Assembly (NCBI GenBank): GCA_008632985.1
Contig: QPGO01000012.1
Span: forward strand, 744,001-808,000
Source: Psammoneis japonica
Taxonomy: Eukaryota
Reading direction: 5' to 3'
Length of the DNA: 64,000 nucleotides
Of this stretch, positions 1-43,499 are shown in pieces (the first letter of the stretch is position 1; the number at the start of each line of letters is the position of its first letter). The notes below the pieces were generated by a model. It saw only the letters and a list, made by a program, of their open reading frames with translations, did not search any database and was not told the DNA's origin. A program made the translations under genes and the position numbers.

Positions 1-86
1 ATTAAACGGGCTTCATTCTATTCTTCAAGGGTTGTTCTAAATCTGGTGTTTGAAATTGTCTCATAAAATTCGAAGCGTGAGACAAA

Positions 87-9550: not shown

Positions 9551-10469
9551 GACTTGTTCCAGACTTACCGTAGGTGCACTCACGCGCGAAAAAATGACCC
9601 TTTTTGCATGAAACGCGCGGTCCACACTTGCGGTACCATTTTCGATAGTAAAAACATAACAATTTACAAATGTGTTGTTATGGGTACATACAGAATTGTC
9701 TTGTGCGTGTACCCATGTATTCGAAACTGTTGATGGACTCGGTTGTTAGTCGCTAAATTGTACCGTAAGTTGAGAGCTCGAATTTTCCGATGAGCGATTT
9801 ATATATGCCTCAATGTAACAAGAAACATATAAAATAAAATTAATATATATAAATTAAGTCTTTAACATAGCATAATTAATATTTTGTTCAAATACGTAAA
9901 TACGAGTTACACTCAACGGATCGAATAAAGCATACGTTGATTAATAAGTTTAGGACGACGTGAGAAGAAGTGTAGCTCAGCCCACGCAATGGCGTCGACT
10001 TCGGACCATTTTTCACGGTTTAAAAGGCATAAACGATTGATACACTTGAATCAGTCGAATATATTGAGGAAATATACATGGTAATAGAAAAGAAATGGTC
10101 CTTAGAGGCAAATTGTGAGTGAATAGAGGCTCAATTGTTGTTGCTGACAGATTTAGCATTATTGTGCCGCGCTGCAGCCTTCAACAAGCATTTTCACTAT
10201 TGTTGTTGATGACACAGACTATATCAAATACGGAGATCCTGGTCATGACATTCAATTTTCCATAAGGCTGAAAAAAGTGGGCCGTCATGGTCACTGAAAG
10301 CCATGGCCGGTTTGGCTGTTTGTTTGTTCGAGTTTATTCTGTTTATTTTACTTAAAAGCCATTTATATGATCAATTTTATTAAATATGTACGGTGTTGAA
10401 TAAAGCATTAAAAAATTATTTTTTCTGCGAAAAGGGGCATGTGCGCGCCACCTAAGTCTGGAACAAGTC
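9551..10469. mobile_element. Non-autonomous DNA transposon (GAC...GTC termini, 4-bp TSD GTTG)
   Basis: TIR GACTTGTTCCAGACTTA at 9551..9567 and its reverse complement at 10453..10469; GTTG at 9547..9550 and 10470..10473; AT-rich interior keeps TpA. Confidence 0.85.
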
Positions 10470-10654
10470 GTTGTTCTTGCACCAGAAATTGATCCAAACC
10501 CTGTGTTCTGAACTCACAACCCACAACCCCTGTGCACATGGCTTGCCAGGCTTCCCTGCAAGGGTGCCCTGAAACTTGTCATTGTGCACATTCCGCACAG
10601 TCTGGTGCATTGCCAATGCACAAATGTGAAGTTTTTGGGCTTGTCTTGTTGGGA

Positions 10655-11054
10655 CAGTGGTCACCTCTGTTTTGTGGGAAAGAACTGTCAAACAACTCAG
10701 TTTGTGGATGTGCTTCAATGATCACATCTCAACCGCAAAACCCTGTTGTCCAAACAAGCCCTCAGGCTCAGTGCCTTGCCCCCAATTTGCACACCATGAT
10801 TTTGGCTCTGCCACTTGTTTTCTCCAGAAACTTGTGCTCAGTCATTTGACACAGACCAAGTCTGCATTGTTTTGCTCAGATTGGTTTTTTGACAAGGAGA
10901 GCGAGTGAAACAAATTCCTTGCATGTGAAAAAAGGGGCAAGACACTGAGAATTTGTTTGGATGATGGGGTTTGTGGTTGAGATGTGATCATTGAAAGACA
11001 TCCATCAACTGAGTTGTTTGAAAACTCTTTTCCATAAAATGGAGGTGATCACTG
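10655..11054. repeat. About 110-bp imperfect inverted repeat (foldback/MITE relic)
   Basis: 10655..10765 matches the reverse complement of 10945..11054 (shared core TTCAATGATCACATCTCAACC); arms differ at several CA/TG and TA/TG sites. Confidence 0.75.
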
Positions 11055-13249
11055 CTTGTGTGTGGCAGGGGGATCCCTGAAGAAAAAACATTGCTGGACT
11101 TGTTGAAATGATGCTGCAACAACCCATGATGGCCCAAAATTTGTGCATTTGTGATCTTGGATCACTTCCACTCAACATCCTCACAAAGAAAAAATGTCTC
11201 TGGCACGGCCATCTGCTGGCTGAAAAATGCCTGCTCGTCAGCTCATTTTGGGGGCTTTGCCAGTGCACTGTTGTGCACAAAATAGATGTTTGCAGTCTGT
11301 CCAGCACACTTGACAAATCTGGCCAAAACTCCCAAATGCACAGACTCTTTCAGCACAAATTCTGTGCAAGATTCTTCAGTGCCAGCAGCTGGCTGGCAGA
11401 AACACCCCCCCCCCCCCCCAGCTGTTGGTGGGGCAAACATGCTGCTGCTTTGCATGTGCACGTTGCACTGTTGTGCTTGCCGAGCCAACGTGCACAAGAA
11501 GTTTGTGGGCAGTGCACATCTTGAGGCAAGGGGCAGAGATGACAGACCTGAAGAGGGGTTGAGCTGGGTTGTGCAGGTGGGAAAGAGGGCTGGTTTGGGG
11601 GGGGGGGGGTTGGCAAGATGGGGCTGCAGCTTGGTGGAGCAATGTGCAAGCTGGTCAGATGAAGATTTGGTGTCCATGAGAAGCCACTGCAAGATGGCTT
11701 TGCAGGCTCCAGTGCAGTGGCACAGTGGAGCAAGGCTGAAGCAGATTGAGACACTCTTCTTTGCACAGGAGCAACAGTTTGGGCACAGGTGCATGCAGTG
11801 TGAGCAGCTGGATGTTGAAAGGAAGATTTGGACACATGGGGCAAAGCAGGCTGGGTGGGGACAGGGTGATTTTGGTCAGCTTAAAGAGAAAGAGCAGGCA
11901 GTGGGCAAGGCATCTCAGTGCTCACAGATGGTCAATGGCAAACAGGACAAGGCAGATGCAGGCTTGGTTCACAGAAAGCACAAAGGTCAATCTGTGTTGG
12001 GTTTCATGATTCCCATTGAATTTCCACTTGGTGCTTGCATGGTGTGCCTCAGCCAAAGGGCCAAGATTGGGGATGGGCAGCAAGCTGGGAACTGGAGGGG
12101 GAGGAGGAGGTGTTTGGGGATGGGTGCTGTGTCAAGGGTCAGGCAGCATTTTGTCTTCATTGCAAGTTGCTGGCAACACTGCTGCATGCTGCAAGTTGCC
12201 AAAAAATTGCATGATTCATGCACACAAAGGTGGAGCTCATGATGGCTGCCATGACTGCATCAAACAGGCATGAAAAAGGCAGCCAATGAGCAGGTCAGAG
12301 GACACGGCAACATTGGCAACAACTTTTCACAGTTTTTGGCCACTGATCATTTCATTGCAATCATCAGCAGTGACTTCATTCTTTTCATCCAGATGCCACC
12401 CCACTTCTTGTCAGCAGCCGGCACACCTCAGACAAACAAGAGCGCTTGCTGGAAAATTTTTGCCGTGCAAGTCAGTCAGGAAGAAAAAAGAGTCAGAAGC
12501 CATGAGGGCCTGTGCAGGACAGAGAGATCACAACAATTCCATCAAAACAGCTTTTTGAATGCTTTTTGCTCACTGCACAGAACAGCCCTTTGGCCTTGGT
12601 GTTGCCTTGAAACTGACAACACCCAAACAGCTTGGGCTTCATGGCACCACCACTCCTGGGTGGGGCGGCTTTGTTGTCTGCTGGGGGCTGCTGCAGCACA
12701 ACTGGTGTGTTGCTCTTCATTGGCACAGCTTTTTTGTTGCACTCAGCTCACATGCTGTGCAATGTGCAGTGGTTCTTCAAGTTGAAACACACAGGGCAAT
12801 GCTTGCCCTGGTTCTCAACAATGTTTCTTTCATTGAAAAAGCTGAAAGTGCAAAGTGCTCTGTGTTGCAACTTGCACAGCACAGAAGTCTGGCAAGAGGG
12901 AGAGTGCATGGGGCAAATTTTTGTCTCTTGTTGTTGACTTTTTTGCTCTCATGTGGATTTCATTGAACACCGGAAGGGATCTGAGACAGGCTTTGGAGCA
13001 GATGATGTGCAGAGCTGCCACTGTGTGCTTTTTGTGTGGCATTGTGGTTGTGCTCAAGGGACACAGAGGAGAGTTGGATGAAGACAAAGCAGTGGAAAAC
13101 ACATTTTGCAAAAATGGCCAAATGGCCACAAAAACATTGTGCAGAAATGTGGTGTGCAATGTCATGTCACTGGACTGGAAATGAAAAATCACAAGATCTG
13201 AAAAGAGTGCCAGTTTGCTGTTGGTCATTGGAAGATCATCAAACAAGGG

Positions 13250-14900
13250 CAGAAATCAAGGTGTGGGGCTTTCTGTCATGCAGGCCCCACCCACACTCAC
13301 ACCCAGAATGGCAAGCTGATGGACAGGTGCAACCTGCAGCAAATTGCACCCTGTCGCCAGGAGGAGCACACACCTTGGTCTCCAAAGAGGTGCCCAACCC
13401 TTTTCCAAGGCTTCGCCAAACCCATGGAGGGCAACGACAATCTTGGATGAATGGATCACAGTCACTGCAGGGGTCTCTGGTTCCACAATCCAAGCCACAG
13501 CATGCAAGTCCAAAAGCAAACAAGATGTGCACAGGGATCAACTCCTGGCTTGTCTCCCACACGGTGCACCCAACTTGCAAATTCCTTGCTTGACATTGCC
13601 CAGTTGTCAGGCTTGCAATTGGGATGCCACAAATCCACAGCAAGATGAGTGCCTTTCAACAATGGTGGGGTCAAGAAAGCACAGGTCATGGCAAGGAGAA
13701 CCAAGAACCCGTGCTTCCACTCCAAGTCCTTGCAGTCAAAGAAGGGGAGGAAATTGTCTGGGTGACCCTTGCACTCAGCATGCATGGCTGGTGCAGAGCC
13801 TTTCCCCTCATCCCACTTGGCCTGAGCCGAGACTGAATGACATCACTCTCCCCAACACTTGGAAAATGGCTCTCCAGCCCAAGCTCTCATCTCAGCCTGA
13901 GAAGGGGGTCACACACCTTCCTGCCTGTGCATTCTGAAGGCCCAAGCATTGCAGTTGAGAGGCCATTTGATGGGCCATCTGCCACACCACTTCTTCACTT
14001 GCTTCCATTCCCCTCAAATGACCCACGAATGTTTTAATGTCACCCGCAATTGCCTGAAGCCGTGAACTCCATTTCATCACAAGCACTTTGTTCACCTGAA
14101 AATTTGGGTCACCTGGGAGGTTGCACACAACCTTGTCAATTCCCACTGCACTTGACAAGCAGAGAGGATCACCCCCAGCCACCTTGTCAGCCCAACAGTG
14201 CAGTGGCTGGACTGCCAAGTGTGGACCAGGGGCATTCCCACAAACAGACAAGTCTGCCATTCCAGCCCCAGCACTTCAGTGTTGGAGCCCAAGAGAGGTG
14301 CTGGCAAATGTGACTTGAGAGGGGTTAAATCAACATCCACACACAGACAAATCTTTGGGTCCATGAAGAAGTTAAGAAACATGATGTCCCCCAAATCAAG
14401 GTCCACCAAGTGGGTGGCTTCCCTGTCATGCACCCCAAAACAGATGCTGGAGCAGGCAAGAAAAATGAGTGGAGCTGCAAGGCATTGTCAATGAGGCATG
14501 ACACCATTCCACTGCAAACCACTCAAACATCCTTGAGGCTCCATGCAGACAGCCTTGGGTGCCCAAAAACAGTTGGCAAGACTGAGTGCACACCCACGTT
14601 GGATGTCTTCTCCCTGCTTTCAAACCTTGTGGACCTCATTGGCTGTCCTTTGAATTTCCCCTGTTGTTCCATGGATCCTCTGACACCTGTGATTCTGTGG
14701 AAGTGCACCTTTGACAAAAATGGGGATCCCATCCCAAGCTGCACACCTCTTGGGCATGGAGGGCCAATGCCAGAACAACAACAAGGAGCCGCTGTGCCAG
14801 CCCCACCAAGAACTGCATTCTTGAGCTGCCACCTGGCCAAGGTTGCACAAAAGCAGATTTGTTTCTCTTTGTCTGGCTTCTTGACTTCACCCTCACAAAC
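13250..14900 (-). mobile_element. Relic RT-RNase H of a DIRS/Ngaro-like (tyrosine-recombinase class) retrotransposon
   Basis: Fragments in order: DLDLGDIMFLNFFMDPKI..VDLT; NLPGDP..VMKW..IAGDIKTFVGHLR (eroded FVDD); SQLQCLGLQNA; KDLEWKHGFLVLLAMT..LKGTHLAVDLW; HGFGEA (from YGFGDA, RNase H); multiple frameshifts. Confidence 0.65.
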
Positions 14901-17471
14901 ACAAGCCTCTTAACTTTTTTGCCCTGCTTCTGCTGCTGCTCATCTTGTGCTGGTGTGTGCTGGAGATCATTTCCAGCCACCTCACACATGCTGTGGGGGC
15001 AGGGTTTGCTCTGTTTTTATCTTTCATTTTTTTGTTGCTCTTGCTGCTTGCTGCTCCAATGTGCGCAGAGCCACTTTCTGTTGTTGCTGCTCTTTTGCTG
15101 TTCTTTTGGTGTTTCTGTGAAGCACTGTGCTGGAAGCTCTGCACAAACAAAATTGAAAAGATGATTTTCCAGCAGAGAGGTCATGGAGAGCACCACACTT
15201 GCTCTCATTTGACAGAAGCACCGCATGGCAGCAGAGAGGCACCTTTGGCAAACTCCAACACTTTCATGTGCTTCAAGACCATGGCAGCTGTTGAAACAGC
15301 TCTTTGTGAGGCAGCTCTCAACAGCAACTAGACCACACACCCAAAGTGGTGTTGAGAACACTTTGCAGGGTGCTTCTTGGCCATGGACAACCTCACAATT
15401 TTTGGCTGGCCAGCTGGGGTGGGGCAACAGGCCTGAGCTCTTGCCTGGCTGCTTTGCAGAGCATCTCAGCTGTTTGCTTTTGGCACCCAAAGCAGTCCTG
15501 CAATTTTCCTTTTTGGCATGTTGTTCATCCCCTTCCCTTGCTTCTTCAAGCAGCAGCATGCAAAGCTTTTTGTGAGAGCTCTGGAGCGGGGTGCTGCCCT
15601 GGCTTCTTGCTCTGCCTCCTGCAGCCATCAGCCATCAGCGCTGCAGAGCTGGACACTCTGCCTCTGCTCTCAAACTCCTTTTGTGTGCACCACATTTTGA
15701 TTCTCAAATTGTTCTTTGTCCTTGAGTGCAGCTGCCTTTGGTGTTGGGTGCTTGTGGAGTCATCAGCTCACCCCACTTTAAAACCTGCTTGCTTTTGCCT
15801 GCTGACTCGCTCTCTTGCTTGATGGAGTCAAGTCAATCAAAATCCACTGCCCACACTGCTGTGACCTTGCAGGGCACGATGGAGTGACAGGGAAATTGGC
15901 CAAACCAGCCCATTCTGACAAGATTGACACTCAACTGCATGACCCATTGCTTCATTGATGAATGTGAAGTGCAAATCCTCACACAAGCCGCTGCAGACAA
16001 AGTGTGTGGTCCTTCAAAAAAATTCTCAAAGTCAGAAGAAAGCACAGCACCCATGCCAGCAGAGGCACCAAAAAGAGACCAAATTGAAGGTTCAGTTGAT
16101 GTTCTTGCAATCCCATCACAAAAGCAAAATGCAGCAACGATGCTGTGCCAATCAAAAGAAAAACATCTGGTCACTGCCTTTGGGTGCAAATGAACAATGC
16201 ATGCTCAGTTCATCAATTGCAACATTGTGAACATGTGGCTGCAGTGGATGCACTCATCTGTCATCCTGTCCTCCACACCACCACTGAAAGCATGTGCAAA
16301 TGCATCATCCTTGCCAGAAGCCTGCTCTCCTCCTTCTCCTTCTTTGGCCACTTCACTTCTTTTTTGTTTTCCAGTCACATGTGCAGTTGGTCTAGATTCT
16401 GGATGCAACAACGTGCTGTGTGGACCACATTTGTGTGTTGTCTCACCTGCACCTTTGTTGCAGTTGGTGGCAGTGGGCTTCAAAAAACTCTTCTTCGACT
16501 CTGCTCCACTTTTCACTGTTGTGGTTGACTGGCTCACTCTGTTGCTCTGTGTCCAAAGGCTCGACTCCACGGGATCTTTTTGTTTTGATCTCTTGCTTTT
16601 TTTTGAAACAGCGCGAGGCTCACTTCATCAAGCAAGCAACACAGCTGTTGCGCGCACCAACAGTTTTGCACTCAAGGTGAATGCTGCAGCTGAGTGCACA
16701 CATTTCCAGCACATGCTGACAATGATGACAGCACCCGCTCTGGGGGCAACACAGGATCGTGCTTGTTGTTCCCGGTGCACACCGACAATGCTGTCAGCAG
16801 TGCCGCTCTTCCCAGAAATGGCAGAGATTGCAGTTTGCCACAAAAATGCTCCAAGCCCTTGTTTTTCTGCACAGTGGTGGCCAGCGATTGGCGCAAAACA
16901 AAAAAGAAGTGACAAGCAAAGGAGGAGTGTGGCAAGAGCTGAGCAGCTTTGGAGCGCGATGCTGGCCCACCAGTTTTCCAGAACTGCTGACCCTAGAAAA
17001 CACTTAAGTGCCGGCAGTCTCCAGCAGTCAGTGAAAATTAGACCATTTCCATGCCTGGTTGTGCGTGGCATTTTTGGCGGGAAAACCAATCACATCTCCT
17101 CGTTTCTGAATGATTTGATTTCAGTCTGAAAGTCGTTGAGCTCAAGCGCTTATTGAGCAACAGAATGACTTATTCATATTGCCTTCCACTTGTATTAACA
17201 ATTTACATTGACGTAAGTTGTTAAATAAAAATTGATATATATATATAATAAATTGTGGCTACAGAATAAAAGAAGGTTTCCTATTTATCTTTAAAATTAG
17301 AATTCTTTGACAAGGCCCAACAATGTTTCATTCTTTCGAATTTTTGCTGAAGCCGCGTTTTCAAGTTGCACTTTCTCATTCGTTCTTCGCAAGCGATAAA
17401 AGGAGTTCTTTTTTGGACAACAACAACAGGTACTATTATTGTCTTGCAAACCTCGCTTTTGATTCGTAGCC

Positions 17472-21353: not shown

Positions 21354-22277
21354 CTACACCACCGAAAAGATTGGTGCACCGTTGTCCATTTGACACTGGA
21401 CAATGACCGCCAGAGCTTCAAAAGCCCACTTGAATTTGTTGAATCTGTCATCTCTACTGGTCGGTTCCGTGCGTAAAAGTATTTCCAAGAATGCCAAAGA
21501 ACTTCATTCGTCCGTTGAATGTCTCGTGTCGCAGACGCGCGCGGCTCTTAAAGTTTGCGAGCACTTCGTCGTCAAGGTGATTGGGAAGTGACAACATGCG
21601 TTGTTCATTGGGAACGTCGGAAGTGCATCCTCTGTCGGCAACAACAAGCTTTCCCTCTGGGATCTCAGCTATTTTCTCTCTGAATGCAACCATGTCATGT
21701 TTGCCTCCTCGATGCGGCCCATTGAGCCAGCAGCACTGTGCACGCCATGTGGACAGACCGACATCACACTTCAAGGCCGCCGTGTCAATCTTGTGAGAAC
21801 AGTCTCACTTGTCTTGATTCAGGGTGGGATGTTTTCGCTCCCACATTAGGAAATCTGATCTGTCAACTGTGCACGCAAAAATGACATCACCATCAAGTGC
21901 CGGATCGAGTGCAATTTTTTTGCCCTTCAATGCCGCAATCTTTCTCACCCATTTGCACACATGCTCACCTTGTGCGTGGACTCTGCAAACTTTGAAGGCC
22001 TTTGCAAATACAGCTGCATTCTTGGGGCAAACAAACAGAAAACAGTGAGCCATGAAGAATCGTCTCAAGCCCTTTGCAGTGTTTTCTTTTGCGCTGACAG
22101 GTTCGCCTCTTGGATTCGTGTGGTTTGAAGATCATGCCACATGTTTGCAAGATCGACAGCGCTCGAGCCATAATTTTTGCGGAACTCCAAATTCCAGTGA
22201 TCTTCAGACCATCTGCAATTGTCCATAGAAAGAAATCTCATTCCCAGCTCAAGAATGTCGTTTGGGGATGGCATCAT
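21354..22277 (-). pseudogene. DDE_Tnp_4-like (PIF/Harbinger/IS5-like) transposase, degraded
   Basis: Motifs TVDRSDF, SHK..AALKCDV, WLNGPHRGGKHD, VADRGC (from ADRGY), RARLRHETFNGRMKFF, VQCQMDNG; internal stops and frameshifts. Confidence 0.85.
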
Positions 22278-22469
22278 CTTTGTCACCAGAGCATTTTGTG
22301 AGAGACGAGAGGCGAGAAAAACAACACCTTCCATTGACATCTGCGAGCGCAATGGTGGAGCACATGATGTGCATTTCCATTGCATTGCAGAAAAAGCCCT
22401 AAAGTGATCATTTGTTGACCGCAACCGTGGAGCAACAACATCTAAAACAATCGCCAGTCAAATCAGGTG

Positions 22470-22729
22470 TGGCTGGCAACGAGCATTGTGTGATGCGCTC
22501 CAACGGACAGTCTCGGACTTCAGTGCAACCGCAAAATTTTCGAAGTTGACAACCAACACAACCTGAACAAGTCAGAGCGATCCTTCAACAGTGGTCCATT
22601 TTCTTCAGTGTCAGCATGGCTGGCAACGAGCATTGCACCATGCGCTCCAACGGAAAGTCTCGGATTTTAGCGCAACAGCGAAATTTTCGAAGTTGACAAC
22701 CAACACGACCAGAACAGTCAGAGCGATCC
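22470..22729 (+). repeat. Two direct copies of a ~113-bp unit between divergent TE ORFs
   Basis: TGGCTGGCAACGAGCATTG...AAATTTTCGAAGTTGACAACCAACAC...GTCAGAGCGATCC at 22470..22583 and 22617..22729. Confidence 0.85.
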
Positions 22730-22739
22730 CACAATTTCA

Positions 22740-23204
22740 ATGGCGCTCCATTTTCACATGGATCAGAGGAAGAAACGGCGGGCCATGGAGACGACGATAA
22801 AGGGAGAAGAAGTCAAACTCAAAACTGCCAGCACCCTAGGAAAAAGGGGGCACACAAAAGCATGGATGAAAATTTGTGATGATCACCCCCCCAAGAGCTG
22901 TCGTGTTGTCGTCCTTGATTCCGACACTGGAGGTGAGTGTGAAACGCTTGTTTGCCGGGGATCAGTGATTGGGACAGATGATCGTCCGCCCACTTCATTC
23001 GTGCAAGCGGCTTTCCTTGAACACCCCGATCTTCAGGAAAAAATTGAGAGCGTGTGCAAGGCCATTGCTCAGTTGGAGCTTCAAGATGAAGACATGGAAG
23101 AAATGCAGGTCATTTTCCAGCAGATGTTGGTGAAGGAGTGTCAGAAGCAAGCTGCAAAGAACAAAAAGATGATTCGCTCTGTCTCAAGTTTCCGACGTTC
23201 TTGA
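22740..23204 (+). pseudogene. Transposon accessory ORF A, unknown function
   Basis: 154-aa protein-like ORF (PPTSFVQAAFLEHPDLQEKIE...) inside the TIRs; contains no Tyr. Confidence 0.5.
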
Positions 23205-23323
23205 GTGCCACCCACCGCAACCTCGGCACAGTCCTCATGGCGGCATCGGCTGCACTGTAGTGCCGACACCACCAGCCATCAATGCACTGCTAGAAATTGA
23301 TGTGCACGTCAGATGCTGCCATT

Positions 23324-24325
23324 TTACTTTTTCTTTTTACTCATCCTTTGTTCATCCGCATCCTCCATCCCGCGTTTGCATGCCTTCTTCACCTTCTTCT
23401 TCTCCTCTTCCTTCCGTTTTTCCTCAGCCTTGGCCCATCGTATCTGGCATTGTTTGATTTTCTTTAATCTCTTTGATTCAAGGAAATCAATGAACTTTTT
23501 GCGCCGGACCTCTTGGCAGATGCGGCGTCTAAAAACTGCCAGCTCAAACTGTTGATGCTCAAGGCATGAAGCATGCAACTGTGCGCCTGACATCCTCAAA
23601 TGCAGGCCATTCACCACATCCTCTCGGAGGAGCGGTTTTGCTGCAGACAAGTCAAAAACTGGCTCCCCACGATGGTTGTGTGTCTGCCTTGGATGCACCA
23701 GCAGATCACGCCTGAGTGCTTCCATTTCAAAGACTGATCTGTTTACATTGCATGACACTTGGGCCCTGTGGTCGATTGATTGCTCCTTGAACTGACAGAA
23801 TGGAACTTTGCGGAATTCTTCAATGTTTTTGTGTGCCATTTCCCATGCTTCTTTGGGAGTCATTTCATCGTCCGTCAGTGGTGGGATGCCGCTTTCCAAG
23901 TCTCCACGAACAATGATCCTTGCTTCACTGTTGGTCCAATCAATCCTTGGTTGCTTGACGGGTTCCAGTCCTGGGTGGGACTCCGAACATCAAATAAACG
24001 GCCAAGTTTGTGGTGCAATTGTGCCTCTTGCCACTCGACATTTTTGCAAGTGCGGCTGCCCCACGCAATTCTTAAGACATTGTAGAATCGCGCTGCAACA
24101 AAAAATGTCAAAAGTTGTTGGACGGATCGCTCAACAAGTGCACCACAAAATGACACAAAATTTCACAAAAGTCTCGTACAATTCTACGTGCGCGACATGC
24201 GGTGCGATCCAAAAAACTGTCGATGTCACAGTTCAGCAGTGCGAGGTCCCACCTAGAGCTGGAACGCGTCGCTTGGGCTTCTTGGGCTTCTTGCTCGGCG
24301 TGGGTGATGCCGACGGATTCATCAT
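23324..24325 (-). pseudogene. Transposon accessory ORF B (second-ORF type), interrupted by a MITE
   Basis: Removing 23957..24270 plus one TSD gives the continuous frame MMNPSASPTPSKKPKKPKQPRIDWTNSEAR...; two repeated (W/F)xxSxAxxxL/VxxD modules. Confidence 0.7.
23957..24270 (-). mobile_element. MITE (GACG...CGTC termini, 4-bp TSD GCTT), partly TpA-converted copy
   Basis: TIR GACGGGTTCCAGTCCTGGGTGGGAC and its inverted partner; GCTT at 23953..23956 and 24271..24274; reverse-complement homolog of 33262..33651 with an internal deletion. Confidence 0.9.
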
Positions 24326-24760
24326 CTTGCCGTTTCAATTTTTTGCGTTGAGCCGAGGATTCATGAGCGAAAAAGGCACAAAATCTCAAATCCATTGTTG
24401 TGTTCATCCTGAATAAAAATGTGTCGTTTTAATCCCGTCAAATCTATCGCAAAAAATGCATGGCGATGCATTGAGTTTACACGTCGCATCCAACATTGTA
24501 GAAGATTCTCGGTGTCCCACGGTGAGATTGCACGCGACTCTACACTCGCAGGGCCCTGCAGTAAATTCACAACTCATTGCCATTGCGAAATGTCCCGTAG
24601 AATTCGCAACTTCACTTTTAAAGATTTGCCCACCTTGCTTTGACACCACCATTGGCGAGACACACTTTGCACCAAGCGCTTCCATGATGAATGCCGGGTT
24701 TGGTCTTGGGCACATCGAGTGCTTGTTCAACTCTAACATGCTGCAGGATCATGTGTTGAC

Positions 24761-25414
24761 ATGCCTTGTGTCAAAAGTTTGGTGAGTTTTGAGGCTGCAC
24801 ACCGGTGCTTCGCAGGGAGCACACATGTGGCATGGAATCGCCTCGCATGCGCTCCACCCCATCTCCATGACGCCATGAATGGAGAAGGCAAATTAAAAAT
24901 AAAGCGTCGCAAAGATGTTCTTTCCCTCTGTCAAAAGATGCATGGCCTGGCACGGAACTTTGACGACAACACTGAAGAGTTTGGGGGACTAATTGACAAT
25001 GGACTGCCATGCCACCGCCCCGAGCATTTCTGCCATTTCTTGTTGATGCGGGCTGCTGATGGTGCCATGATGTTTGAAGATTGGATCCCAAACTCGATCA
25101 TCAGTGCTGAGGTGCGGGTTGCTTGTTTGACACTCATGTTGGATGAGCTGAACATTGAGTGCAATGACTGCTCGGATCCCCTTTTGTTTGAAGATTTTCC
25201 TCTTCCGTCAGTGGTGTTGATTGCATGTGGGCCTCGCGATTTGGATGCAAGCAGCCCTAGAATTCTCTCTGCCCTGCCCTGTTTTGACTGGGACTTTGGG
25301 ACGAGTTTTGATGGATTGATTTTCAATCTTGACACCCACGAAGTTTTTCATGGTGTTGTTTCGGGCAAGTTGTTTTTCGTCAACGAAAAAAGCATTGCAC
25401 TTCGCATGTTCTGA
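24761..25414 (+). pseudogene. Transposon cargo ORF C, unknown function
   Basis: 217-aa protein-like ORF within the TIRs; no Tyr, Cys/His-enriched. Confidence 0.4.
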
Positions 25415-25866
25415 AAGGGATTGTGGTGATGATGTGGATCAATGGTGTCTCAATTGTCTCAATGGAGCCAGGTGGGAAACTGTTGATGATGTTGGTCAGT
25501 GTCAGAGCTGTGTCGATGCCAGCAGTGGTGCTAGCAGCATTGTGCTGTGCCAGTGGTGTTGCTGACACCAGCAGCATTGTTGCCAAAGCCGGCATGAGAG
25601 CAACTTGCATTGCCAATTGCCGACACGCAGTGGCACCTGTCCGACACGATCCACATCTGTTCAAAACCAACGGACCATGTGCTTGCTGTCAATCATGATG
25701 CAACACAATTTTCCATCAATGCACATCATGTGTTTCCCAAATTTTAGCATGCTTGTTTTAGCGGGAATGGGATTGGCTGTCTCAACTGACAACTGGCGAA
25801 AATTTCAACTGCCGGAGCAACTCCGAGACTCCACAGCTGCTTTGCCAACATCTCACAATTCTCCAA

Positions 25867-27513
25867 ATGTCTGAACCTGCACTTGAGGATTGGGAGACAA
25901 AGCAATTGCTCCAAGAAGCAGAGAAGCTAAACACACCAAGAGACCAGATCTTGCACAGTCACCTGGCTTTTCGAAGTGCCGTTCTCGGCGGTGACAGAAG
26001 ACGTTTGTCCCAGAAGAAGTGGCCCCAATTCAAGTGTTCTACAATTGCTGCACATTGCAGCACGCTCTTGAAGCACAGTGTTGAGCCACCACCGTGCACT
26101 CTTTGCCTTTGCCAGGAATCCACTTCCTTAGATGCAGCACCCACCGAAGCACCAGCAGAGGATGCGGCACCGGCAGAGCATGCGGCACCAGCAGAAGACA
26201 CGGCACCGGCAGAGCATGCTGCAGCCGAAGCACCACCAAAGGAAGAACTCGAGGACGATGCTGAAGACGACAACCTCCTTCAAGGCATGAGCCGCCTTTT
26301 CAGCGCATCTGCCCCACCCCGTGGCCAGAATCCCCAACCGCCAGCCGCAGGAAGCCAACTGCCAGCCGTGGGAAGCCAACCGCCAGCCTTGGGAAGCCAA
26401 CCGCCAGCCTTGGGAAGCCCTCCATTGTCCATGGCATCCAACAGTGACACAAACAGTCCTCCTCCTGTGGGGGATCCGTCTCGTGGTGGCCGTGTCCATT
26501 TTGCTCCATCAACAAATGCCGCGAACCAGCACGGCCCACCCGCATTCTCTCCGGCAAGAGCCTGCAACTCTCCGGCAACGGCCTACAACCCCCCGGCAGC
26601 AGCCTGCAATGGCATGAGCCTTGCGCCAAATGCTGGCCATCTGCCAGCGAGTGGACACTCCTGTTCTGGGAACACATTGGAATCTTCGTTGGAATCCAGT
26701 GAGCAACACGTTTTGCTGTCGGGAATGTGGCAACACAACACACTCCCGAACTGGTTGTGTGAGAGCATGGGCGGCAGTGCCCACTCACCTTTTGTCATCA
26801 AGGTCAACCCTTCTGATGCAGAAAATCATCGAGAGTTTGCCATTCGCAAGCTCCGCCCCTTCTGTCACGGCACCTGCATGCGCTCAGGGTGTCACGTCCA
26901 GCACCCATGTGCATTTGAAGAAGACTGCAAATCTTTTCAAGCAAAACCTTTGGACAGCATCAACAACCTTCATTGCTGTGGAAATGTCCTTCCAGCATGT
27001 GAGGGGAGGAGCATCCTGGTCACAAGTGTGCTTCAGAGTGCATCAGTGGCTTGTCCAACCTGTCTTTACGATGGTCCCGCAGAGACCGCCGTTCAGCAAA
27101 TTGTCCGGCAAGCTGAGCCAATGACGATGAGTGAGACTCGCTGCAAACACACTCTTCTTCTTTTCCCTTTGAATTCAGAGCGATTGGATAATCGCACTCT
27201 TTCCACTGGACATGATTGCGTGATCGACCGCAAGGTGGTCCCTTTCGAAGAGAATGGCAACCCGCTTCCTGTCCAAGGGTGCTGTCGTCACCTGGACCAT
27301 TGCCGAAAAGGGGGGGATGGACATTGGGGGAGCTTGTCTCCCACAAAATGTTCAACGCCAAGTCCCACAAAATGCTCAACCGCCCAATCAATTCCGACGC
27401 CCCTTCTTTCTTTAGTTTCTCGGGAGCTTTTTTTCAACATCTTGAATTTTTCGATTTTATGTCTTACATCTATCCTCATCAATAACACACACACATGTTC
27501 ATATGATGTATAA
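25867..27513 (+). pseudogene. Transposon accessory ORF D with internal minisatellites
   Basis: 548-aa ORF from MSEPALEDWETKQLLQE; 18-bp (APAEDA/APAEHA) repeats at ~26137..26235, 21-bp (GSQPPAL) repeats at ~26338..26420, 24-bp duplication at ~27340..27385. Confidence 0.55.
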
Positions 27514-28033
27514 ACAAACCGATATTAACCGTCCTAATACTTGTGTACGTGTGTGCATTATACATTTATTTTTCGCACTTTGTACTTTGTACTGCGGTCG
27601 ACATAAGTGAAATGTCCAAATTTCTTGCTTTCGATGCTGATTGGCGTTGGATTGGCCGTTGGATTGATCGCCAATCGCCAACTTTGTCTCACTTTGTCTA
27701 GCTTCGCCAAAAATTCATATATGTGAATCGCATAAATCCCTAAATAACTTAATGCCATTGGCGATTTTGGCGATGTTGTCAAAATGTGAAAAAAAACTGG
27801 CGATAAATGATCATTTAACGAAGTCATCCAATGAACAAAAAAGACCGCATTAATGTACCTAATTCACGATGCTTTTTTTCTACGCGCGAGGCGACACAGT
27901 GTGGTTCAGCCCATAACCTCAAAAATGTGACTGGACTCGTGCGAATGAAACTCAGAACAACACCATGGCGGCATGGCTCCATTCATGAATACACTGTCAC
28001 TGGGACAATGTCACAGGGGTAAGAGCATTGACA

Positions 28034-33169: not shown

Positions 33170-33261
33170 TTTTGGATTCTCCATCGCGCAGCATGTCGAA
33201 TCTTCCGACTTGAGGTCCACATTATGAATGATCCTGGACCCATCGCGCCCACCCAACAAAT

Positions 33262-33651
33262 GACGCGTTCCAGGTCTAGGTGGGACCTCGTACTGCTGAA
33301 CTGTGACATCGATAGTTTTTTGAATCACGTCGTATGTCGCGCACGTAGATTTCTACGTGATTTTTTCGATATTTTGTGTCATTTTACGGTACACTTATTG
33401 AGCGATCCGTCCAACAACTTTTGACATTTTTTGTTACAGCGCGATTCTATAATGTCTTAAGAATCGCGTAGGGCAGGCGCATTTGCAAAAACGTCGAGTG
33501 GCAAGAGGCATAATTGTACCACAAACTTGGCAGTTTATTTGATGTTGAAGATAAATGTATCCATTAATTAAATTCTCGTACTACGGAGCTCGCACGTAGA
33601 ATTCTACGGGCCCAATGTCACACGGAGTCCCACCTAGGACTGGAACCCGTC
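33262..33651 (+). mobile_element. MITE (GACG...CGTC termini, 4-bp TSD AAAT), essentially unconverted copy
   Basis: TIR GACGCGTTCCAGGTCTAGGTGGGAC versus right reverse complement GACGGGTTCCAGTCCTAGGTGGGAC; AAAT at 33258..33261 and 33652..33655; TpA-rich. Confidence 0.9.
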
Positions 33652-34151: not shown

Positions 34152-34427
34152 TGACAGGATTTGAACAGGATTTGGATGCGCGCGAAGTGTCGCGCGCTGT
34201 TTAGTTTACCGCGCACAGTTTTGTGTGCTTTAGTTCCGCGCGTTCACGCGCGATGTAGTTTGCTTTCGAGCCACAAGGCTCACAAGAATGATGACAGCAG
34301 CCCGATCACACCGACTTGCCCGTCTTTCGGCTCCTGCAACGGTCTCTGAGCGGAGACTCATCTGCCATTTAGACAGCAGTGAGGAGTCATTGTTTGAATT
34401 CTTGCCATTTGCCTTCAATTTCTGTCA
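34152..34427 (+). repeat. 5' LTR
   Basis: TGACAGG...TTCTGTCA; 14 transition differences from the 3' LTR. Confidence 0.95.
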
Positions 34428-34440
34428 GATTAACAGTCTT
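34428..34440 (+). promoter_or_regulatory. Putative primer-binding site complementary to the tRNA-Asn(GUU) anticodon arm
   Basis: GATTAACAGTC directly after the LTR is the reverse complement of GA-CTGTTAA-TC; no TGG (CCA-complementary) start. Confidence 0.6.
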
Positions 34441-35366
34441 GCTCATTGTCAACCCATTGAGCAACCGCCATCGTCGTCGTTGATTTACCAACGACGCCAT
34501 TTCAATTCTACGTGGACCTCCGTATATATTCTACATACATCGGCAAGTCTACGCGCATTCAATACCAGGGCATCGGCAGGAAGTTAACGTCACCGTCAAG
34601 TCTCCTTACCGCTGGATATCTGGATTGATTATACTACCTTTGATCGCTGAAGACATACATTCAACGGTCATATCCAAGTCTATCCTTGATCCTCATCCCT
34701 TGATATACCTATTCATCGGTTAACGGTCAAGAACCCTACATATTCAAGGATCTTCGTCGCTGAAGACATATATATATATACATATCTTCACGGCCAAGAA
34801 CCTGTACCCACTCTTCGGACTGCGGTTTTGCTGCCACTCTACAAGCACACCGAGTCCATTGTACCTGATCTACCCCGGACTGCTGGTGCTCTACAGTTCT
34901 ACTAGGTCCACGAGGATGACTGTGAGAGCAAGCAGCCGTGATTACAACCTGCGTTGGGGCGAGGGTGCTTTCCCGCGTTTGTTCGTTCGTCCACAGCGCC
35001 CAACGCCTGCGTCAACTGGCCAGCCTGATCGGGAAATCCAACCGACATAAAATAAGAACGGTTCGGGGGTCTTGTCCACCTCCAGTCAGCTTGCCTGCAG
35101 GGGTTTACAACCCGCCGCTCCGCTCGCAAGCAACCCAAAGCGCCGCTGGCTGCGGGTTCGGACGTGCCGGCACAACTCTGCAGACCGGACAGGAAGTTTA
35201 GCACTTGACAACGAACGGGATAACAAAGCCCGGCGACTTCTGATTTTAAGATGGTTCAAGATTTCAAGTCAAGTCCATTTCAAGTCAAGCCTGTTCTCAC
35301 CCAAGTTTCGAGTCTGCCTTCGCTTCCCAACCCGAATTGATTGTCCTGACACCACTTTTATCTACC

Positions 35367-38300
35367 ATGGTTCTCACTCGTCAGCAACAAACCGATGGTT
35401 TCGAGCACGTTGTTGGAACCGTGCTTGCCCAAGGTGCTGGGAGTCCTCTTCGTTTGGCTTTGGCCCAAGACGGCACGGACTCGCATCAGGAACTGTTCAC
35501 GTTCACACCGTCCCAAATCGACTCGCTTGAGTGCGACAACGGCACTGGTGCAATCCCTTTGCCCCGTGGTTGTAAGAACATGTTAGCAGCACTAGTTAGC
35601 CTGTGCATTGTCAAAGCACACAAGGGTCTTGACGTTGCCAACGACTCCTCTTTGTTCGCGCATGACGAGTTCCTTGCCCACCGCCTCAGCCCGGACTGCA
35701 TGTCCTCTGTGTCCATCGGCAGCTCACCCCTTGCACCTCCACATGTCACCAACCCGACCAAGGCATGCGACCCGGTGCGAGACTTCAAGCGAGGCATCAA
35801 GCGTGATCCCACCGCTTTCACGGCTCTCAAATCCGACAAGCAGTGGCACACTTGGCACACCTCACTTGTGGCACAAGCCCGTGCCCAAGACGTCGAGTGC
35901 ATTCTAGACTCGTCGTACAAACCGACCAGCCCCGAAGACAAACTGCTCTTTGCTGAACAGCAAAAGTGCATGTTCGCCGTCTTCGAACGCATCCTTCTCA
36001 CCGACAAGGGCAAGGCTCTCATTCGCGAAAATGTGGGGTCTTCTGACGCACAGACCGTCTGCCGCTCCTTGTCTGAGTGCGCGCTTGCCTCCACCCGTGC
36101 ATCTGTCGAGTCCTCCACCCTGCTCACGTACCTCACCACCGCACGTCTTGGTGATGGCACTTGGAAAGGCCCGACCCACGGGTTCATCCTTCATTGGCAA
36201 GATCAGTTGCGCAAGTGCGAGGCGCTCATCCCTGCCAGTGACCACTTCTCTGAAGGACAGAAGCGCGTCATGCTCGAGAATGCCGTGCACCCTGTCGAGG
36301 AACTCCGTGCTGTCAAGAACCAAGCTGATCAGCACCGCACGCAGAGTGGCAAGAGCCTCACATGCGATCAATGCTGTGGCTTGCTCCTCTCCGCGGCAGC
36401 TCAGTGCGACAGCACGTTTCAACCCAAGACGACACCCAGAGCTCCCCGACGCGCCACATGCGCACATGACGTCTGCTCCGAGGAACCGTCCGACGATGTG
36501 TTCTACGACATTGACAGCGACGTTGACGTCCTTCAAGCCAATGCTGCCTGCACCCGCGGTCCCAGCCTCACCGGTGTCCAATGGAGACGTCTCCCTCCCG
36601 ACCACCAACGGCTCTGGGATTCGTTGCCCGATTCCTCCAAGGCGATCATCCTTGAGCATTCTGGTCCGCCTCCCTGCAACCCGCGAGCCAGTGACTGCCA
36701 TGAGTCTGTTACGGCCAACCTTCACGACCAACACCTTGGGAGTGACGGTGATGTCAACTTGTCCAACACGACTCCTGCTGACTGTGGTGACCCCGCCACA
36801 CATGTGGACGCCACTTCGGACAATCCCATCCTGGCGCACCTCACCAAGCGCAAGCCACTGCCACCCGGTGATCTGCAACGTCTGTTGTCTCCTAACCAAG
36901 CCCCCAATGCCAGTCGACCGGGGCCATCCGCCGCTTCCTCTACCCCGCCAGCTTCTGCAGATAACACAGAACTTAACGGCCGCACTTGCCGCCGCGTCAA
37001 CAACCACAATGTCATTTGCTCTGCCTCTGCTCATCGCTCCACACGCACTGGCGCTCTAGTCGATCGTGGGGCCAACGGCGGCATTGCTGGCGACGACGTT
37101 CGCGTCATCGCACGCACCTCTCGCCAAGTCGACGTTCAGGGCATTGACGATCATCAATTGGTGGACATCCCCATTGTCACCGCTGGTGCCGTCATTGAGA
37201 CCCAGCGTGGTCCCGTCATCGCCATCCTCCATCAGCGCGCATGCACGGGAAAGGGCAAGACCATCCATTCCTGCGGCCAGCTCGAATGGCACAAACAGGA
37301 TGTCAACGATCGCTCTGTCAAGGTGCCCAACGGCTTGCAACGCATTGCCACTCCTGATGGCTGTGTCATCCCCATTGACATCAAGGCTGGCCTGCCTTGT
37401 GTTGCCATGCGACCTTACACTGACGCCGAATGGACACCCTGCCCCATGTCATCCTCACCGGTGATGACACATGGGACCCTTCCGTCCTCGATCACTCTGT
37501 CACTGACGACGACCAGTGGTACGACGCGATCTCTGACCTACAGGACGATCCCACTGCCAACCCATTTGACGAATGCGGCAACTACCGTCACCGTGTCGTT
37601 GTCAACGAGACCATCTTGTCCGCTTCCTTGTCTGCCGATCACGCGTCCGCCCTCGATGATCACCTCATTCCGAACGACGACGTGTTCTACGAGTGTCATC
37701 TGCATGCGATTGACCCCCAGGGCGATGACGTTCCACCTCCGGAGCGCACTGTACAGCCCAAGGACCCCCCCTTCGAGTCTCTTCGGCCTTGCTTTGGCTT
37801 CCCACCTGCCGATGCGGTCCGTCGTACTTTTGACTGCACCACGCAGTGCGCCCGCATGCCCGCCGGTACACACCTTCGCAAGGCCTGCAAATCACCCAAC
37901 CCCGCCCTTAATGTGCACCGCCGCAACGAGCCTGTCGCCACTGACACCGTTTGTGCCGACACCCCGGCCGTCGACTCTGGTTGCACCAGCGCCCAACTGT
38001 TTGTTGGCACCGAGTCTACCGTCACTGACGTCTGCGGCACTAAGACGGACAAAGAGTTTGTCAACACACTCGAGGATCAGATCCGTGAACGTGGTGCCCC
38101 ATCCAGCGACCGTGCTCAAGTTGAGATCAGCAACAAAGTGCTCGGGATCCTACGCGCCCTCTTCATCTCCAGCTGGCAAAGTGAGCCTCACCAGCAACAC
38201 CAAAACTTTGCCGAACGTCGACACCAGACCGTGAAGCGCATGGCGAACACTGTCATGGACCGTTTTGGTTCGCCCGCCCACACATGGCTGCTGGCGCTCA

Positions 38301-41080: not shown

Positions 41081-41249
41081 TTTGCTTTCGAGCCACAAGG
41101 CTCACAAGAATAATGACAGTAGCCCGATTGTGCCGACTTGCCCATCTTTCGGCTCCTGCAACGGTCTCTGAGCGGAGACTCATCTGCCATTTAGACAGCA
41201 GCAAGGAGTTGTTGTTTGAATTCTTGCCATTTGCCTTCAATTTCTGTCA
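40974..41249 (+). repeat. 3' LTR
   Basis: Direct repeat of 34152..34427, same length, followed by the TSD. Confidence 0.95.
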
Positions 41250-43490: not shown

Positions 43491-43499
43491 GGTTGAAAC

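Follow-up and report, generated by a model that had tools for sequence, protein, structure and literature searches.

Directional loss of TpA from transposons and other silent DNA in a 64-kb window of a diatom genome

Results

Copies of an abundant MITE in the window

The window, by which we mean the whole 64-kb stretch of the Psammoneis japonica assembly that was analysed (contig QPGO01000012.1) and to which, as a single stretch, all window figures below refer, contains four copies of one short transposon family, here called A to D.

23957..24270, + strand: 314-bp MITE copy A, older and mutated, lacking an internal piece of 76 bp; 6 TA (o/e 0.30), CG o/e 1.06
23957-23985 and 24242-24270: terminal inverted repeats (TIRs) of copy A
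23953..23956, second copy 24271-24274, unstranded: target duplication (TSD) of copy A, GCTT, as read from the sequence
33262..33651, - strand: full-length MITE copy B (390 bp), which is young and nearly unmutated; 27 TA (o/e 0.88), 28 CG (o/e 1.5)
33623..33651, - strand: 5' TIR of B, which starts GACGGGTTCCAGTCCTAGGTGGGAC; partner 33262-33290
33258..33261, second copy 33652-33655, unstranded: TSD of copy B, read as ATTT in element orientation
33547..33622, - strand: 76-bp segment of B that A lacks but the old copies C and D retain
60399..60700, + strand, ends approximate: copy C, an old and decayed member of the family with 64% identity to B; 2 TA (o/e 0.10), CG o/e 0.38
63196..63565, - strand, cut by an N run (63566-63815): old decayed copy D, 67% identity to B; 3 TA (o/e 0.10), CG o/e 0.06

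The ends that a preliminary description of this DNA had proposed for A and B are the exact element boundaries, and each insertion has its own 4-bp TSD, the sequence of which differs between them. In both copies 25 of 32 end positions are complementary, and the window-wide count of this TIR pattern is 5 where 0.02 would be expected. A related TIR end occupies 10445-10469. The 76-bp deletion is derived in A, because C and D retain the segment. An empty-site joint of B (33256 to 33651), present in 2 contigs of a public DNA run at 80% likeness and with one side of 33 nt, skips 394 nucleotides, i.e. the 390 of the element plus the 4 of its target duplication. Contigs assembled from this run, which possibly comes from the same sample as the assembly, gave 3,240 pieces matching the element, with a summed word depth of 4e4-6.5e5 inside it and of about 750-1,640 on either side, a ratio of tens to hundreds (a rough figure, contig depth not being copy number); two further public runs gave 1 and 13 pieces and are excluded from all claims made here. 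The two long ORFs that reach into copy A (23327-23989, - strand; 23796-24413, + strand) had no Pfam match.

A single 390-bp TIR element, very abundant in the diatom nuclear genome, inserted separately to give A and B; it is a MITE by its TIRs, insertion-specific TSDs, small size, non-coding nature and high copy number. It resembles the Tourist and Stowaway types in being short (390 bp) and non-coding, and in its TIRs, target duplications and very many copies, but differs from them in a target duplication of 4 bp and variable sequence (GCTT, ATTT) rather than TA or TWA.

Copy A has lost TA relative to copy B

Over the 314 aligned bases A and B differ 30 times. At 12 sites (33291, 33313, 33333, 33386, 33391, 33397, 33436, 33450, 33470, 33511, 33517 and 33635, the last in a TIR) TA in B is CA or TG in A; the reverse class, CA/TG in B with TA in A, is empty in this alignment (12:0, binomial p=4.9e-4). 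At five sites a CG of B corresponds to CA/TG in A, a single transition is CA to CG, four further transitions pair A/T of B with G/C of A, and the 8 transversions include one at a TA. Transitions affect 12/38 A/T bases within TA and 5/136 elsewhere (Fisher p=6.8e-6), so that 12 of the 17 A/T to G/C transitions outside CpG from B to A lie in TA. Losses in A amount to 13/19 alignable TA against 5/23 CG. Along the age series B > A > C > D the CG o/e runs 1.5, 1.06, 0.38, 0.06 and the TA o/e 0.88, 0.30, 0.10, 0.10, and C and D have TG or CA at most CG sites of B.

The preliminary description had reported at least 11 TA to TG/CA changes and one more in a TIR, about 4 CpG transitions and no reverse case, and the counts of 12 (TIR site included), 5 and 0 bear it out, as does the contrast that it proposed between TA and other A/T contexts. 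Its core reading, a directional mutational change of TA to TG/CA, is backed by the family reads, the three-state sites, the Copia tyrosine codons and the LTR pair described below. The broken TIR symmetry by which it polarised the change is real but, being one site, is weak alone. Its picture of a "before and after" pair holds in the loose sense that B inserted recently and is almost unmutated, whereas A is older and mutated; B is not literally the "before", since 8 of the 12 changes in A are not private to A, their CA/TG states making up 37-83% of family depth. B itself carries a few derived states (33502, 33557, 33532).

TA sites vary throughout the family

The family counts refer to the variants listed (40 of 53). 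Among these, 24 of the 26 T>C/A>G variants lie in the TA dinucleotides of B. At least 19 of B's 27 TA sites vary at 5% of depth or more, against 3 of 48 CA/TG sites that vary towards TA among the variants listed (p=7.6e-9; p=9e-6 if the 5 further C>T/G>A variants beyond those listed had all created TA). The same depth threshold was reached by 4 of 28 CG sites among the variants listed.

A family consensus in the TG/CA state, which the preliminary description had named as the result that would make B the derived copy, is ambiguous: CA/TG has the majority at 4 of the 8 A/B TA sites listed. The cause of this ambiguity is the hypermutability of TA sites, a problem familiar from CpG sites when Alu consensuses are built, and not a derived state of B; the naive majority consensus was rejected as a polariser for that reason. 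Subfamily inheritance, instead of independent hits, may account for part of the high CA/TG shares. Polarisation with C and D as the only outgroups was also rejected, both having lost nearly all TA: since they are nearly TA-free, their agreement with A could be parallel loss, and only mismatches are informative. Such mismatches occur. At five TA sites of B the family contains CA as well as TG variants; where A and C are both non-TA they disagree at 3/6 sites (e134, e255, e261), and C and D disagree at 2/5 non-TA sites. At CpG sites, where chemistry gives the direction, CA-versus-TG disagreement between copies stands at 5/12. In these patterns TA is the hub state of the three-state sites, mirroring CpG.

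A neighbouring Copia element shows the same change

34152..41249, + strand: Copia-type LTR retrotransposon (RVT_2), LTRs 34152-34427 and 40974-41249; internal TA o/e 0.34, CG o/e 0.91

As a polarised test independent of the MITE, we scored columns of its polyprotein that are conserved in at least 80% of homologous polyproteins, 120 for the C-terminal part and 90 for the N-terminal part. At conserved tyrosine columns 23/39 are changed (Cys 17, His 6), while conserved His or Cys has become Tyr at 0/33 (p=1.2e-8). The codons read at the 17 C-terminal changes are TGY or CAY, the 6 N-terminal changes lying outside the codon reading. The two 276-nt LTRs differ at 14 bases, every one within a YpR dinucleotide: 4 TA<->TG/CA events, 2 CG<->TG/CA events and 4 dinucleotides at which one LTR has CA and its partner TG. 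Since no difference was found outside these 10 events, TA there mutates tens of times faster than other bases. The mutation acts on DNA after insertion.

RNA-level editing of the retroelement was rejected as a source: Tyr to Cys and Tyr to His both occur (17:6), and a DNA transposon is changed alike. Errors of the polymerase-eta type (WA to WG) are unlikely, as the listed A>G/T>C variants outside TA number two, both of them in CA context and neither at AA, and Lys to Arg change at 4/33 conserved columns, against tyrosine loss at 17/30, also counts against them. Other repeat pairs in the window (a 177-bp tandem array, D9 and I2) are too diverged for a clean test; CA-versus-TG doubles recur in them.

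TA-free domains lie beside ordinary genes

The phenomenon is far larger than the A/B pair.

10453..17000, unstranded: largest TA-erased domain; complex, apparently non-repetitive sequence, no Pfam domain in its ORFs
22001..27000, unstranded: TA-depleted domain around copy A; 1-kb bins with TA o/e 0.06-0.26, CG 0.51-0.95
2001-3000, 42001-45000, 59001-60500 and 63001-63565: other TA-depleted stretches

About one third of the window is nearly TA-free, and CpG-poor too, the whole-window TA o/e being 0.40; over the 64 1-kb bins TA and CG o/e are correlated (Spearman 0.67, p=1.5e-9). The largest domain includes a run of 2,153 bp (11882-14035) free of TA, and over 12001-16000 the o/e values are 0.03 for TA, 0.10 for CG and 1.79 for CA/TG. 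The G+C content of the erased domains is about 46-50%. TA-rich B sits in TA-poor flanks, adjoined by a TA-free run (33635-34202). Genic DNA at 46-58 kb has a TA o/e of 0.60, as against 0.64 at the orthologous locus of another diatom, a between-species baseline of n=1 (a metagenome scan gave 28 candidate stretches and 1 usable locus), and the intergenic 1-kb bins at 53-55 kb keep 0.61-0.84. At the mostly silent codon phases 2-3 and 3-1 of the host genes, TA o/e is 0.44-0.50 and CA/TG 1.1-1.8; a milder bias is therefore present genome-wide, and "targeting" may be a matter of degree.

A Pfam search of 50 ORFs, mostly from depleted regions, gave no match for any ORF of an erased domain. One ORF (5092-5796) has a deaminase-like match below threshold, at 17.8 bits against a cut-off of 27.

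Sequence context of the loss

Comparison of depleted with normal bins gives TA counts of 5 versus 401 for RTAY, 46 versus 229 for YTAR and 33 versus 662 for mixed contexts (p=1.8e-14), and in the family 4/5 YTAR sites are invariant against 4/22 others (p=0.017). At all 12 asymmetric sites the main product agrees with the flanks (YTAY to TG 7, RTAR to CA 5; p=4.9e-4). These counts give a flank rule in which the change is mainly A to G at 5'-T-A-Y-3' on either strand, RTAY being hardest hit and YTAR (CTAG, TTAA, CTAA/TTAG) largely spared. The rule is not strict; exceptions are the Copia tyrosine codons that follow a pyrimidine (Cys 6, His 4), CA in A at a CTAC site (e182) and one LTR difference (ATAA/ATGA). 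The strand asymmetry expected of single-strand or transcription-linked deamination is absent: on the + strand of the most heavily erased bins TG and CA are about equally frequent, TG/(TG+CA) being 0.45-0.55.

Discussion

The losses of TA described here have a direction and a sequence context, act on resident DNA after insertion, fall on both strands alike and form a regional mosaic in which genes keep ordinary diatom values (one comparison locus). We consider it likely that they reflect a directional, context-specific hypermutation of resident silent DNA from TpA to TpG/CpA. In such a process very fast transitions would turn the self-complementary YpR dinucleotides of resident transposons and other silent DNA into TpG/CpA, TpA being converted first and CpG more slowly, with both strands affected; the TpA loss of copy A would then be a local view of a genome-level process. 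We infer that it is driven by an enzyme and aimed at silenced or methylated chromatin, in the manner of a genome defence.

As to chemistry, our tentative preference is for conversion of adenine, possibly modified, to hypoxanthine at T-A-Y, beside deamination of 5-methylcytosine at CpG. A complete defence system built on this, in which adenine (perhaps N6-modified) would be deaminated at 5'-T-A-Y-3' on both strands of silenced transposon chromatin, again beside 5-methylcytosine deamination, is a bolder proposal, which we put forward as possible rather than probable. It would erase both palindromic YpR dinucleotides and scramble Tyr to Cys or His without creating stop codons; if true, it would mirror RIP and would be the first case of a natural adenine deaminase system for DNA. 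Much the same observations could be produced by other chemistry, for which we would also claim possibility and not probability: repair of T:G mismatches aimed at methylated DNA, in which the thymine is removed and replication errors would be fixed as T to C at TpA, much as in very-short-patch repair, or a mutagenic modification of thymine (hydroxymethyl- or formyl-uracil) at TpA. Hydroxymethyluracil at TpA is known in dinoflagellates, the process here is strand-symmetric and regionally coupled with CpG loss, and a repair bias might raise the site rate about 100-fold with no deaminase. However, a repair that restores C at T:G should raise TG to CG change too, yet CpG drops in the same domains; the 3'-pyrimidine rule most simply means recognition of the A strand; and the partial texts that a literature search returned on thymine modification concerned dinoflagellates only, none of them diatoms. 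An untargeted bias, under which TA and CG are hypermutable everywhere, dead DNA drifts and selection keeps both in genes, seems to us improbable. It would accommodate the silent codon phases of the host genes (TA 0.44-0.50, CA/TG 1.1-1.8) and the erased domains in which no Pfam domain marks a transposon; the TA rate implied by the LTRs is, however, hard to square with a silent-site TA o/e of about 0.45-0.6, genic TA (0.60) equals that of the orthologous diatom locus (0.64, n=1), and the bins between genes at 53-55 kb are still at 0.61-0.84.

The remaining alternatives are far less credible. A change in the RIP-like direction, with CA/TG ancestral and TA gained in B's lineage by C to T at CpA/TpG, is very improbable and already largely refuted by the present data. 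In its favour, B is a young copy whose states are in the minority at some family sites (T at 33313 makes up 17% of depth), and A agrees with the old copies C and D at 3/6 and 3/4 comparable sites, a counter-indication to TA ancestry which, taken alone, is also compatible with TA gain in B's lineage; DNMT4 might drive such a change, diatom DNMT4 enzymes being relatives of fungal RID (PMC9998398). But independent changes of this kind would have made B's CA/TG sites variable, and they are mostly invariant: TA variants occur at 3/48 of them (variants listed) in hundreds of copies, against at least 19/27 variable TA sites. The five three-state sites and three A/C mismatches, the TA-poverty of the oldest copies, the one-way Copia changes (23/39 against 0/33) and the window's low TA o/e of 0.40 with its TA-free kilobases, where RIP enriches TpA, stand against it too. 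It is equally hard to believe that the erased domains are an artefact, heavily modified DNA (5mC, modified TpA) having been miscalled where the true sequence keeps TA and CG. Modified bases can indeed cause systematic A to G and C to T miscalls in some long-read data; yet separately assembled contigs of the public run contain 74% of sampled 31-mers from 23900-33700, each TA, CA or TG variant is present in tens of distinct contigs, the Copia reading frame is open with clean TGY/CAY codons, and miscalling of a palindrome on both strands predicts mixed calls and not 0 TA in 2,153 bp. Least credible of all is selection, either against TA and CG as harmful in transcripts or in the form of gene conversion biased towards G/C. 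Suppression in RNA viruses concerns the same two dinucleotides (UpA and CpG), and in 17/17 transitions between A/T and G/C outside CpG it is B that has A/T and A that has G/C; but the changes pile up in non-coding copies that are dead and also separate the two LTRs of a single element, conserved tyrosine codons are destroyed, and biased gene conversion would not single out TA (12/38 TA bases against 5/136 other A/T).

Returning to the hypermutation of TpA that we favour, we know of transposon-directed hypermutation only as cytosine deamination, in RIP, CpG decay and APOBEC editing, whereas the dominant event here is an A:T to G:C transition at TpA. Its speed (10 events separating the two LTRs of an element, with zero background change) and its thoroughness (2 kb of complex sequence without any TA) set it apart. 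A search of titles and abstract openings found no description of TpA-erasing hypermutation, although subscription journals and supplements may contain one. If the cause is enzymatic, it would imply a natural activity that edits adenine in DNA or modifies TpA at a defined motif, of relevance to genome defence, to diatom epigenetics (DNMT4 and other orphan enzymes) and to base-editing technology. In practice, the ages of transposons in this lineage are unreadable from LTR or copy divergence unless TA and CG are masked; TA needs CpG-like treatment when a consensus is built; and TA-free DNA yields long spurious ORFs because TGA is the sole remaining stop.

Relation to known systems

Fungal RIP of the Neurospora type is alike in its dense, dinucleotide-restricted transitions in transposons and repeats, in the ruin of coding capacity and in kilobase domains of skewed dinucleotide content next to normal genes. 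The MITE and the Copia element are both repeats. Its polarity is the opposite: RIP produces TpA from CpA/TpG by C to T, whereas here TpA is destroyed by A:T to G:C, as seen in the loss of tyrosine (23/39, reverse 0/33) and in TA o/e values down to 0.03, and the erased domains have about 46-50% G+C and are not AT-rich. The decay of methylated CpG in vertebrate and plant transposons shares the change of CG to TG/CA in silent DNA, found here with CG o/e falling from 1.5 in B through 1.06 in A and 0.38 in C to 0.06 in D, and likewise leaves CA-versus-TG disagreement as the mark of an ancestral palindrome. Hypermutation targeted to TCG has been reported in basidiomycete transposons. To our knowledge neither of these has a TpA component, whereas here TpA decays too, and faster than CpG (13/19 against 5/23 in A; TA o/e 0.34 against CG 0.91 in the Copia element). 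Very-short-patch repair in E. coli, which is held to deplete CTAG, similarly turns TA words into CA/TG words through a T:G to C:G bias, but here CTAG is among the best-surviving contexts and the effect is regional and eukaryotic.

The remaining comparison is with adenine deaminases, namely the tRNA deaminases TadA/ADAT, the laboratory adenine base editors made from TadA, and the A-to-I editing of mRNA in fungi. The TadA/ADAT type makes A to G with an obligatory 5' T/U, and the natural site of bacterial TadA, U-A-C, resembles the T-A-Y preference described here; the signature of A to G after a 5' T is seen here in the 24 of 26 family variants (those listed) and the 12 of 17 B-to-A transitions that lie in TA. 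As far as we know, the substrate of these enzymes is RNA, and DNA only once they have been evolved in the laboratory, whereas here it is chromosomal DNA, on both strands.

TpA loss between two copies of a MITE

The intervals 23957-24270 (+; copy A) and 33262-33651 (-; copy B) coincide exactly with the boundaries of two copies of one MITE, which have in common terminal inverted repeats (TIRs) of 29-32 nt, complementary at 25 of 32 positions, each copy having its own 4-bp target duplication (GCTT at A, ATTT at B). B is 390 bp long; A lacks 76 bp (B 33547-33622), a deletion derived in A because the segment is present in two old, decayed copies, C (60399-60700, +) and D (63196-63565, -). Across 314 aligned bases A and B show 30 differences: 12 where TA in B is CA or TG in A (one within the TIR) and none in reverse (12:0, p=4.9e-4); five from CG in B to CA/TG in A, and one from CA to CG; four other transitions, all with A/T as the B state; and eight transversions. 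The counts of the preliminary description (at least 11 TA->TG/CA changes plus one in a TIR, about four CpG transitions, no reversals) were all correct on this alignment, and the comparison it proposed gave transitions at 12 of 38 A/T bases within TA vs 5 of 136 outside (p=6.8e-6). In total A has lost 13 of 19 TA and 5 of 23 CG.

A is located in a TA-depleted domain; B is TA-rich with flanks poor in TA, the arrangement that recent insertion into already erased (TA-depleted) DNA should give. In two contigs of X1, a public DNA run of the same organism, in contig form, that is possibly the assembly's own sample, the flanks of B are joined without the element (33256/33651; a skip of 394, which is 390 + 4), a joint with 80% likeness and a 33-nt side, giving a hint only that the insertion is still polymorphic or heterozygous in the sequenced material.

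The MITE family and the direction of change

X1 contains 74% of the words sampled from 23900-33700, and 3,240 of its contig pieces fall on the element (target 33180-33730, 80% likeness). Summed depth is 4e4-6.5e5 within the element and about 750-1,640 on either side of it. Such contig depths are not copy numbers and carry no linkage between sites, but they point to a family size roughly in the hundreds. At 5% of depth or more, 53 variants relative to B occur (33 A>G or T>C; 12 C>T or G>A), of which the 40 listed were mapped onto B. Among the variants listed, 24 of 26 A>G/T>C changes lie within TA dinucleotides of B; 19 of its 27 TA vary (mean non-TA share about 45%), as do 4 of 28 CG, and TA-creating variants occur at 3 of 48 CA/TG. 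The difference in variability between TA and CA/TG has p=7.6e-9, or 9e-6 if every unlisted C>T/G>A had made TA.

The preliminary description named a multi-copy consensus in the TG/CA state as what would refute it. That check was ambiguous, with CA/TG at 37-83% of depth at the eight listed A/B TA sites and in the majority at four; the direction claimed, TA->CA/TG, stands and is settled by four other arguments, namely bimodality, hub states, age and a protein test on a Copia element. Were CA/TG->TA acting on copies, the 48 CA/TG of B should vary, and they barely do. TA is a hub because it is the sole state one step from both CA and TG: the family has both variants at five TA of B, and sites that are non-TA in both copies mismatch at 3 of 6 between A and C and at 2 of 5 between C and D. 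CpG sites, for which direction is known from chemistry, behave likewise (C vs D mismatch at 5 of 12). With age, observed/expected (o/e) CpG falls from 1.5 in B to 1.06 in A, 0.38 in C and 0.06 in D, and TA drops along with it (0.88, 0.30, 0.10 and 0.10).

Conversion of resident DNA in the Copia element

Relatives of the Copia LTR retrotransposon (34152-41249, +) number in the hundreds (59-72% identity), and the protein test was confined to columns with at least 80% conservation among 120 homologues (90 for the N-terminal part). In the C-terminal part the window copy departs from the conserved residue at 58 of 584 columns; 11 of the 30 conserved Tyr there have become Cys and six His, with TGY and CAY codons at these 17 columns, and none of 27 conserved His/Cys has become Tyr. 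The N-terminal half has Tyr->Cys at 6 of 9 and the reverse at 0 of 6, so that the whole element shows Tyr->Cys/His at 23 of 39 vs 0 of 33 in reverse (p=1.2e-8).

The LTRs (34152-34427 and 40974-41249) were identical when inserted, and their 14 differing bases therefore postdate insertion. They comprise four TA<->TG/CA differences, two per LTR; two CG<->TG/CA; and four dinucleotides where one LTR has CA and its partner TG, the trace left when both LTRs took a single hit in an ancestral palindrome. No difference beyond TA, CG and these dinucleotides was found over the 276 nt. Conversion thus acts on resident DNA, after insertion, and fast; because there is no background substitution between the LTRs, we estimate the rate of change of TA here at tens of times that of ordinary bases. 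The Copia interior has o/e values of 0.34 for TA and 0.91 for CG; in MITE and Copia alike, TA is lost before CpG.

Flanking context

We compared 500-bp bins with TA o/e <0.2 (21 kb) and >=0.45 (27.5 kb). TA counts in depleted vs normal bins are 5 vs 401 for RTAY, 33 vs 662 for mixed contexts and 46 vs 229 for YTAR; in depleted bins ATAT, ATAC and GTAC are nearly extinct, and CTAA/TTAG, CTAG and TTAA survive best. The genome-wide family reads concur (invariant sites of B: 4 of 5 YTAR vs 4 of 22 others, p=0.017), and the flanks set the dominant product at all 12 asymmetric sites (YTAY->TG at seven, RTAR->CA at five; p=4.9e-4). The simplest rule, a tendency only, has A change to G in 5'-T-A-Y-3' of either strand. 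From it follows that single products dominate high-share sites without any need for subfamilies, and that Tyr (TAY) becomes Cys oftener than His (17:6, p=0.035). Against a strict rule, Copia Tyr codons after a pyrimidine gave six Cys and four His, and isolated sites in A and in the LTRs depart from it.

A regional mosaic

Over the whole window o/e is 0.40 for TpA, 1.39 for CA/TG and 0.75 for CpG, and about a third is erased. The longest TA-free run, 2,153 bp of complex, non-repetitive sequence (11882-14035), lies in a region (12001-16000) with TA at 0.03, CG at 0.10 and CA/TG at 1.79; TA and CG o/e correlate over 64 1-kb bins (Spearman 0.67, p=1.5e-9). TG and CA occur in balance on the + strand of erased bins; both strands are thus struck alike. 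Genic DNA at 46-58 kb has TA at 0.60 and CG at 0.93, and the orthologous locus of another diatom, our one outgroup locus, has the same TA level (0.64). Host genes, in mostly silent codon phases, have TA at 0.44-0.50; a weaker genome-wide pressure on TA may also be present.

Genes in the window:
81-1181 (+) and 3331-4557 (+): tandem paralogues with a Laminin_G_3 domain, 72-77% DNA identity
5092-5796 (-): ORF with a helicase-associated (HA) domain
47036-49852 (-): FSH1 serine hydrolase-RWD-Obg-like GTPase fusion, a single intron-free ORF
50369-52567 (-) and 55599-57788 (+): TPR_12/TPR_10 repeat genes in divergent orientation

The closest relatives of the fusion ORF (54-60% identity) include Fragilaria, Seminavis, Epithemia and other diatoms, which identifies the window as nuclear diatom DNA; the listed diatom homologues have the same architecture, and no identical protein was found in the protein collection searched. 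Both gene pairs are duplicates that keep normal TA levels. In the ORF at 5092-5796 a further, sub-threshold hit, to a deaminase domain of the bacterial MsddA-like kind (E=0.0039; 17.8 bits vs a cut-off of 27), is probably spurious.

A related TIR end at 10445-10469 (-; three mismatches to the family pattern) directly adjoins a TA-free run (10453-11035), its interior, towards 10000, being TA-rich; possible readings are a further young insertion in erased DNA or a MITE relative of greater length there, and no partner TIR was found within three mismatches. Decayed TIR-like matches at 1853-1869 (-) and 62960-62976 (+), where the CTAG of the TIR is now CTGG, may mark where additional old copies end beside erased stretches. 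Stop-to-stop ORFs of 130-320 codons run in several frames on both strands of 11081-17126 and other erased stretches because without TA there can be no TAA or TAG stop codon; none has Pfam content, and gene callers may over-predict in such DNA. An open frame of 583 codons (25762-27513) in a TA-depleted domain likewise has no Pfam match and contains a 21-bp tandem repeat of about six units (26313-26438). A tandem array at 28028-29045 has units of about 177 bp, 66-80% alike, with many CA-versus-TG doubles among their differences.

Mechanism

Our findings show that TpA and CpG are converted to TpG/CpA at the level of DNA, on both strands and in a context-specific way, after insertion and much more strongly in some domains; we infer that an enzyme does this and that silenced chromatin is its target. 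Tentatively, we prefer a chemistry in which adenine, or modified adenine, would be deaminated at T-A-Y beside deamination of 5mC, since both reactions yield TG on the struck strand and have palindromic targets, open to marking by a maintenance system, and since T-A-Y begins with the 5' T/U that is characteristic of TadA/ADAT-type deaminases.

Biased T:G repair or mutagenic thymine modification, taken jointly, is a possible alternative source of the same changes. Untargeted mutation bias, with selection in genes, is unlikely. A RIP-like process (RIP: fungal repeat-induced point mutation) running in the reverse direction is very improbable, given the near-invariant CA/TG of B; equally improbable is an artefact from miscalling of modified bases, and selection or gene-conversion bias is the least credible source.

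Comparison with known systems

To our knowledge a TpA-erasing conversion has no described counterpart, and none was found for the TpA half in a search of listings of openly accessible papers. The CpG half resembles ordinary methylation decay. Diatom DNMT4 is treated in PMC9998398. On the evidence of one window and one run, we regard the TpA/CpG conversion as transposon-directed hypermutation of a new variety; should the adenine-deaminase reading be true, it would be categorically new. It shares with TadA/ADAT-type deaminases an A->G outcome after a 5' T/U, and resembles RIP in its density, its dependence on context and its ruin of transposons; unlike RIP, whose defining feature is that TpA is created, it destroys TpA.
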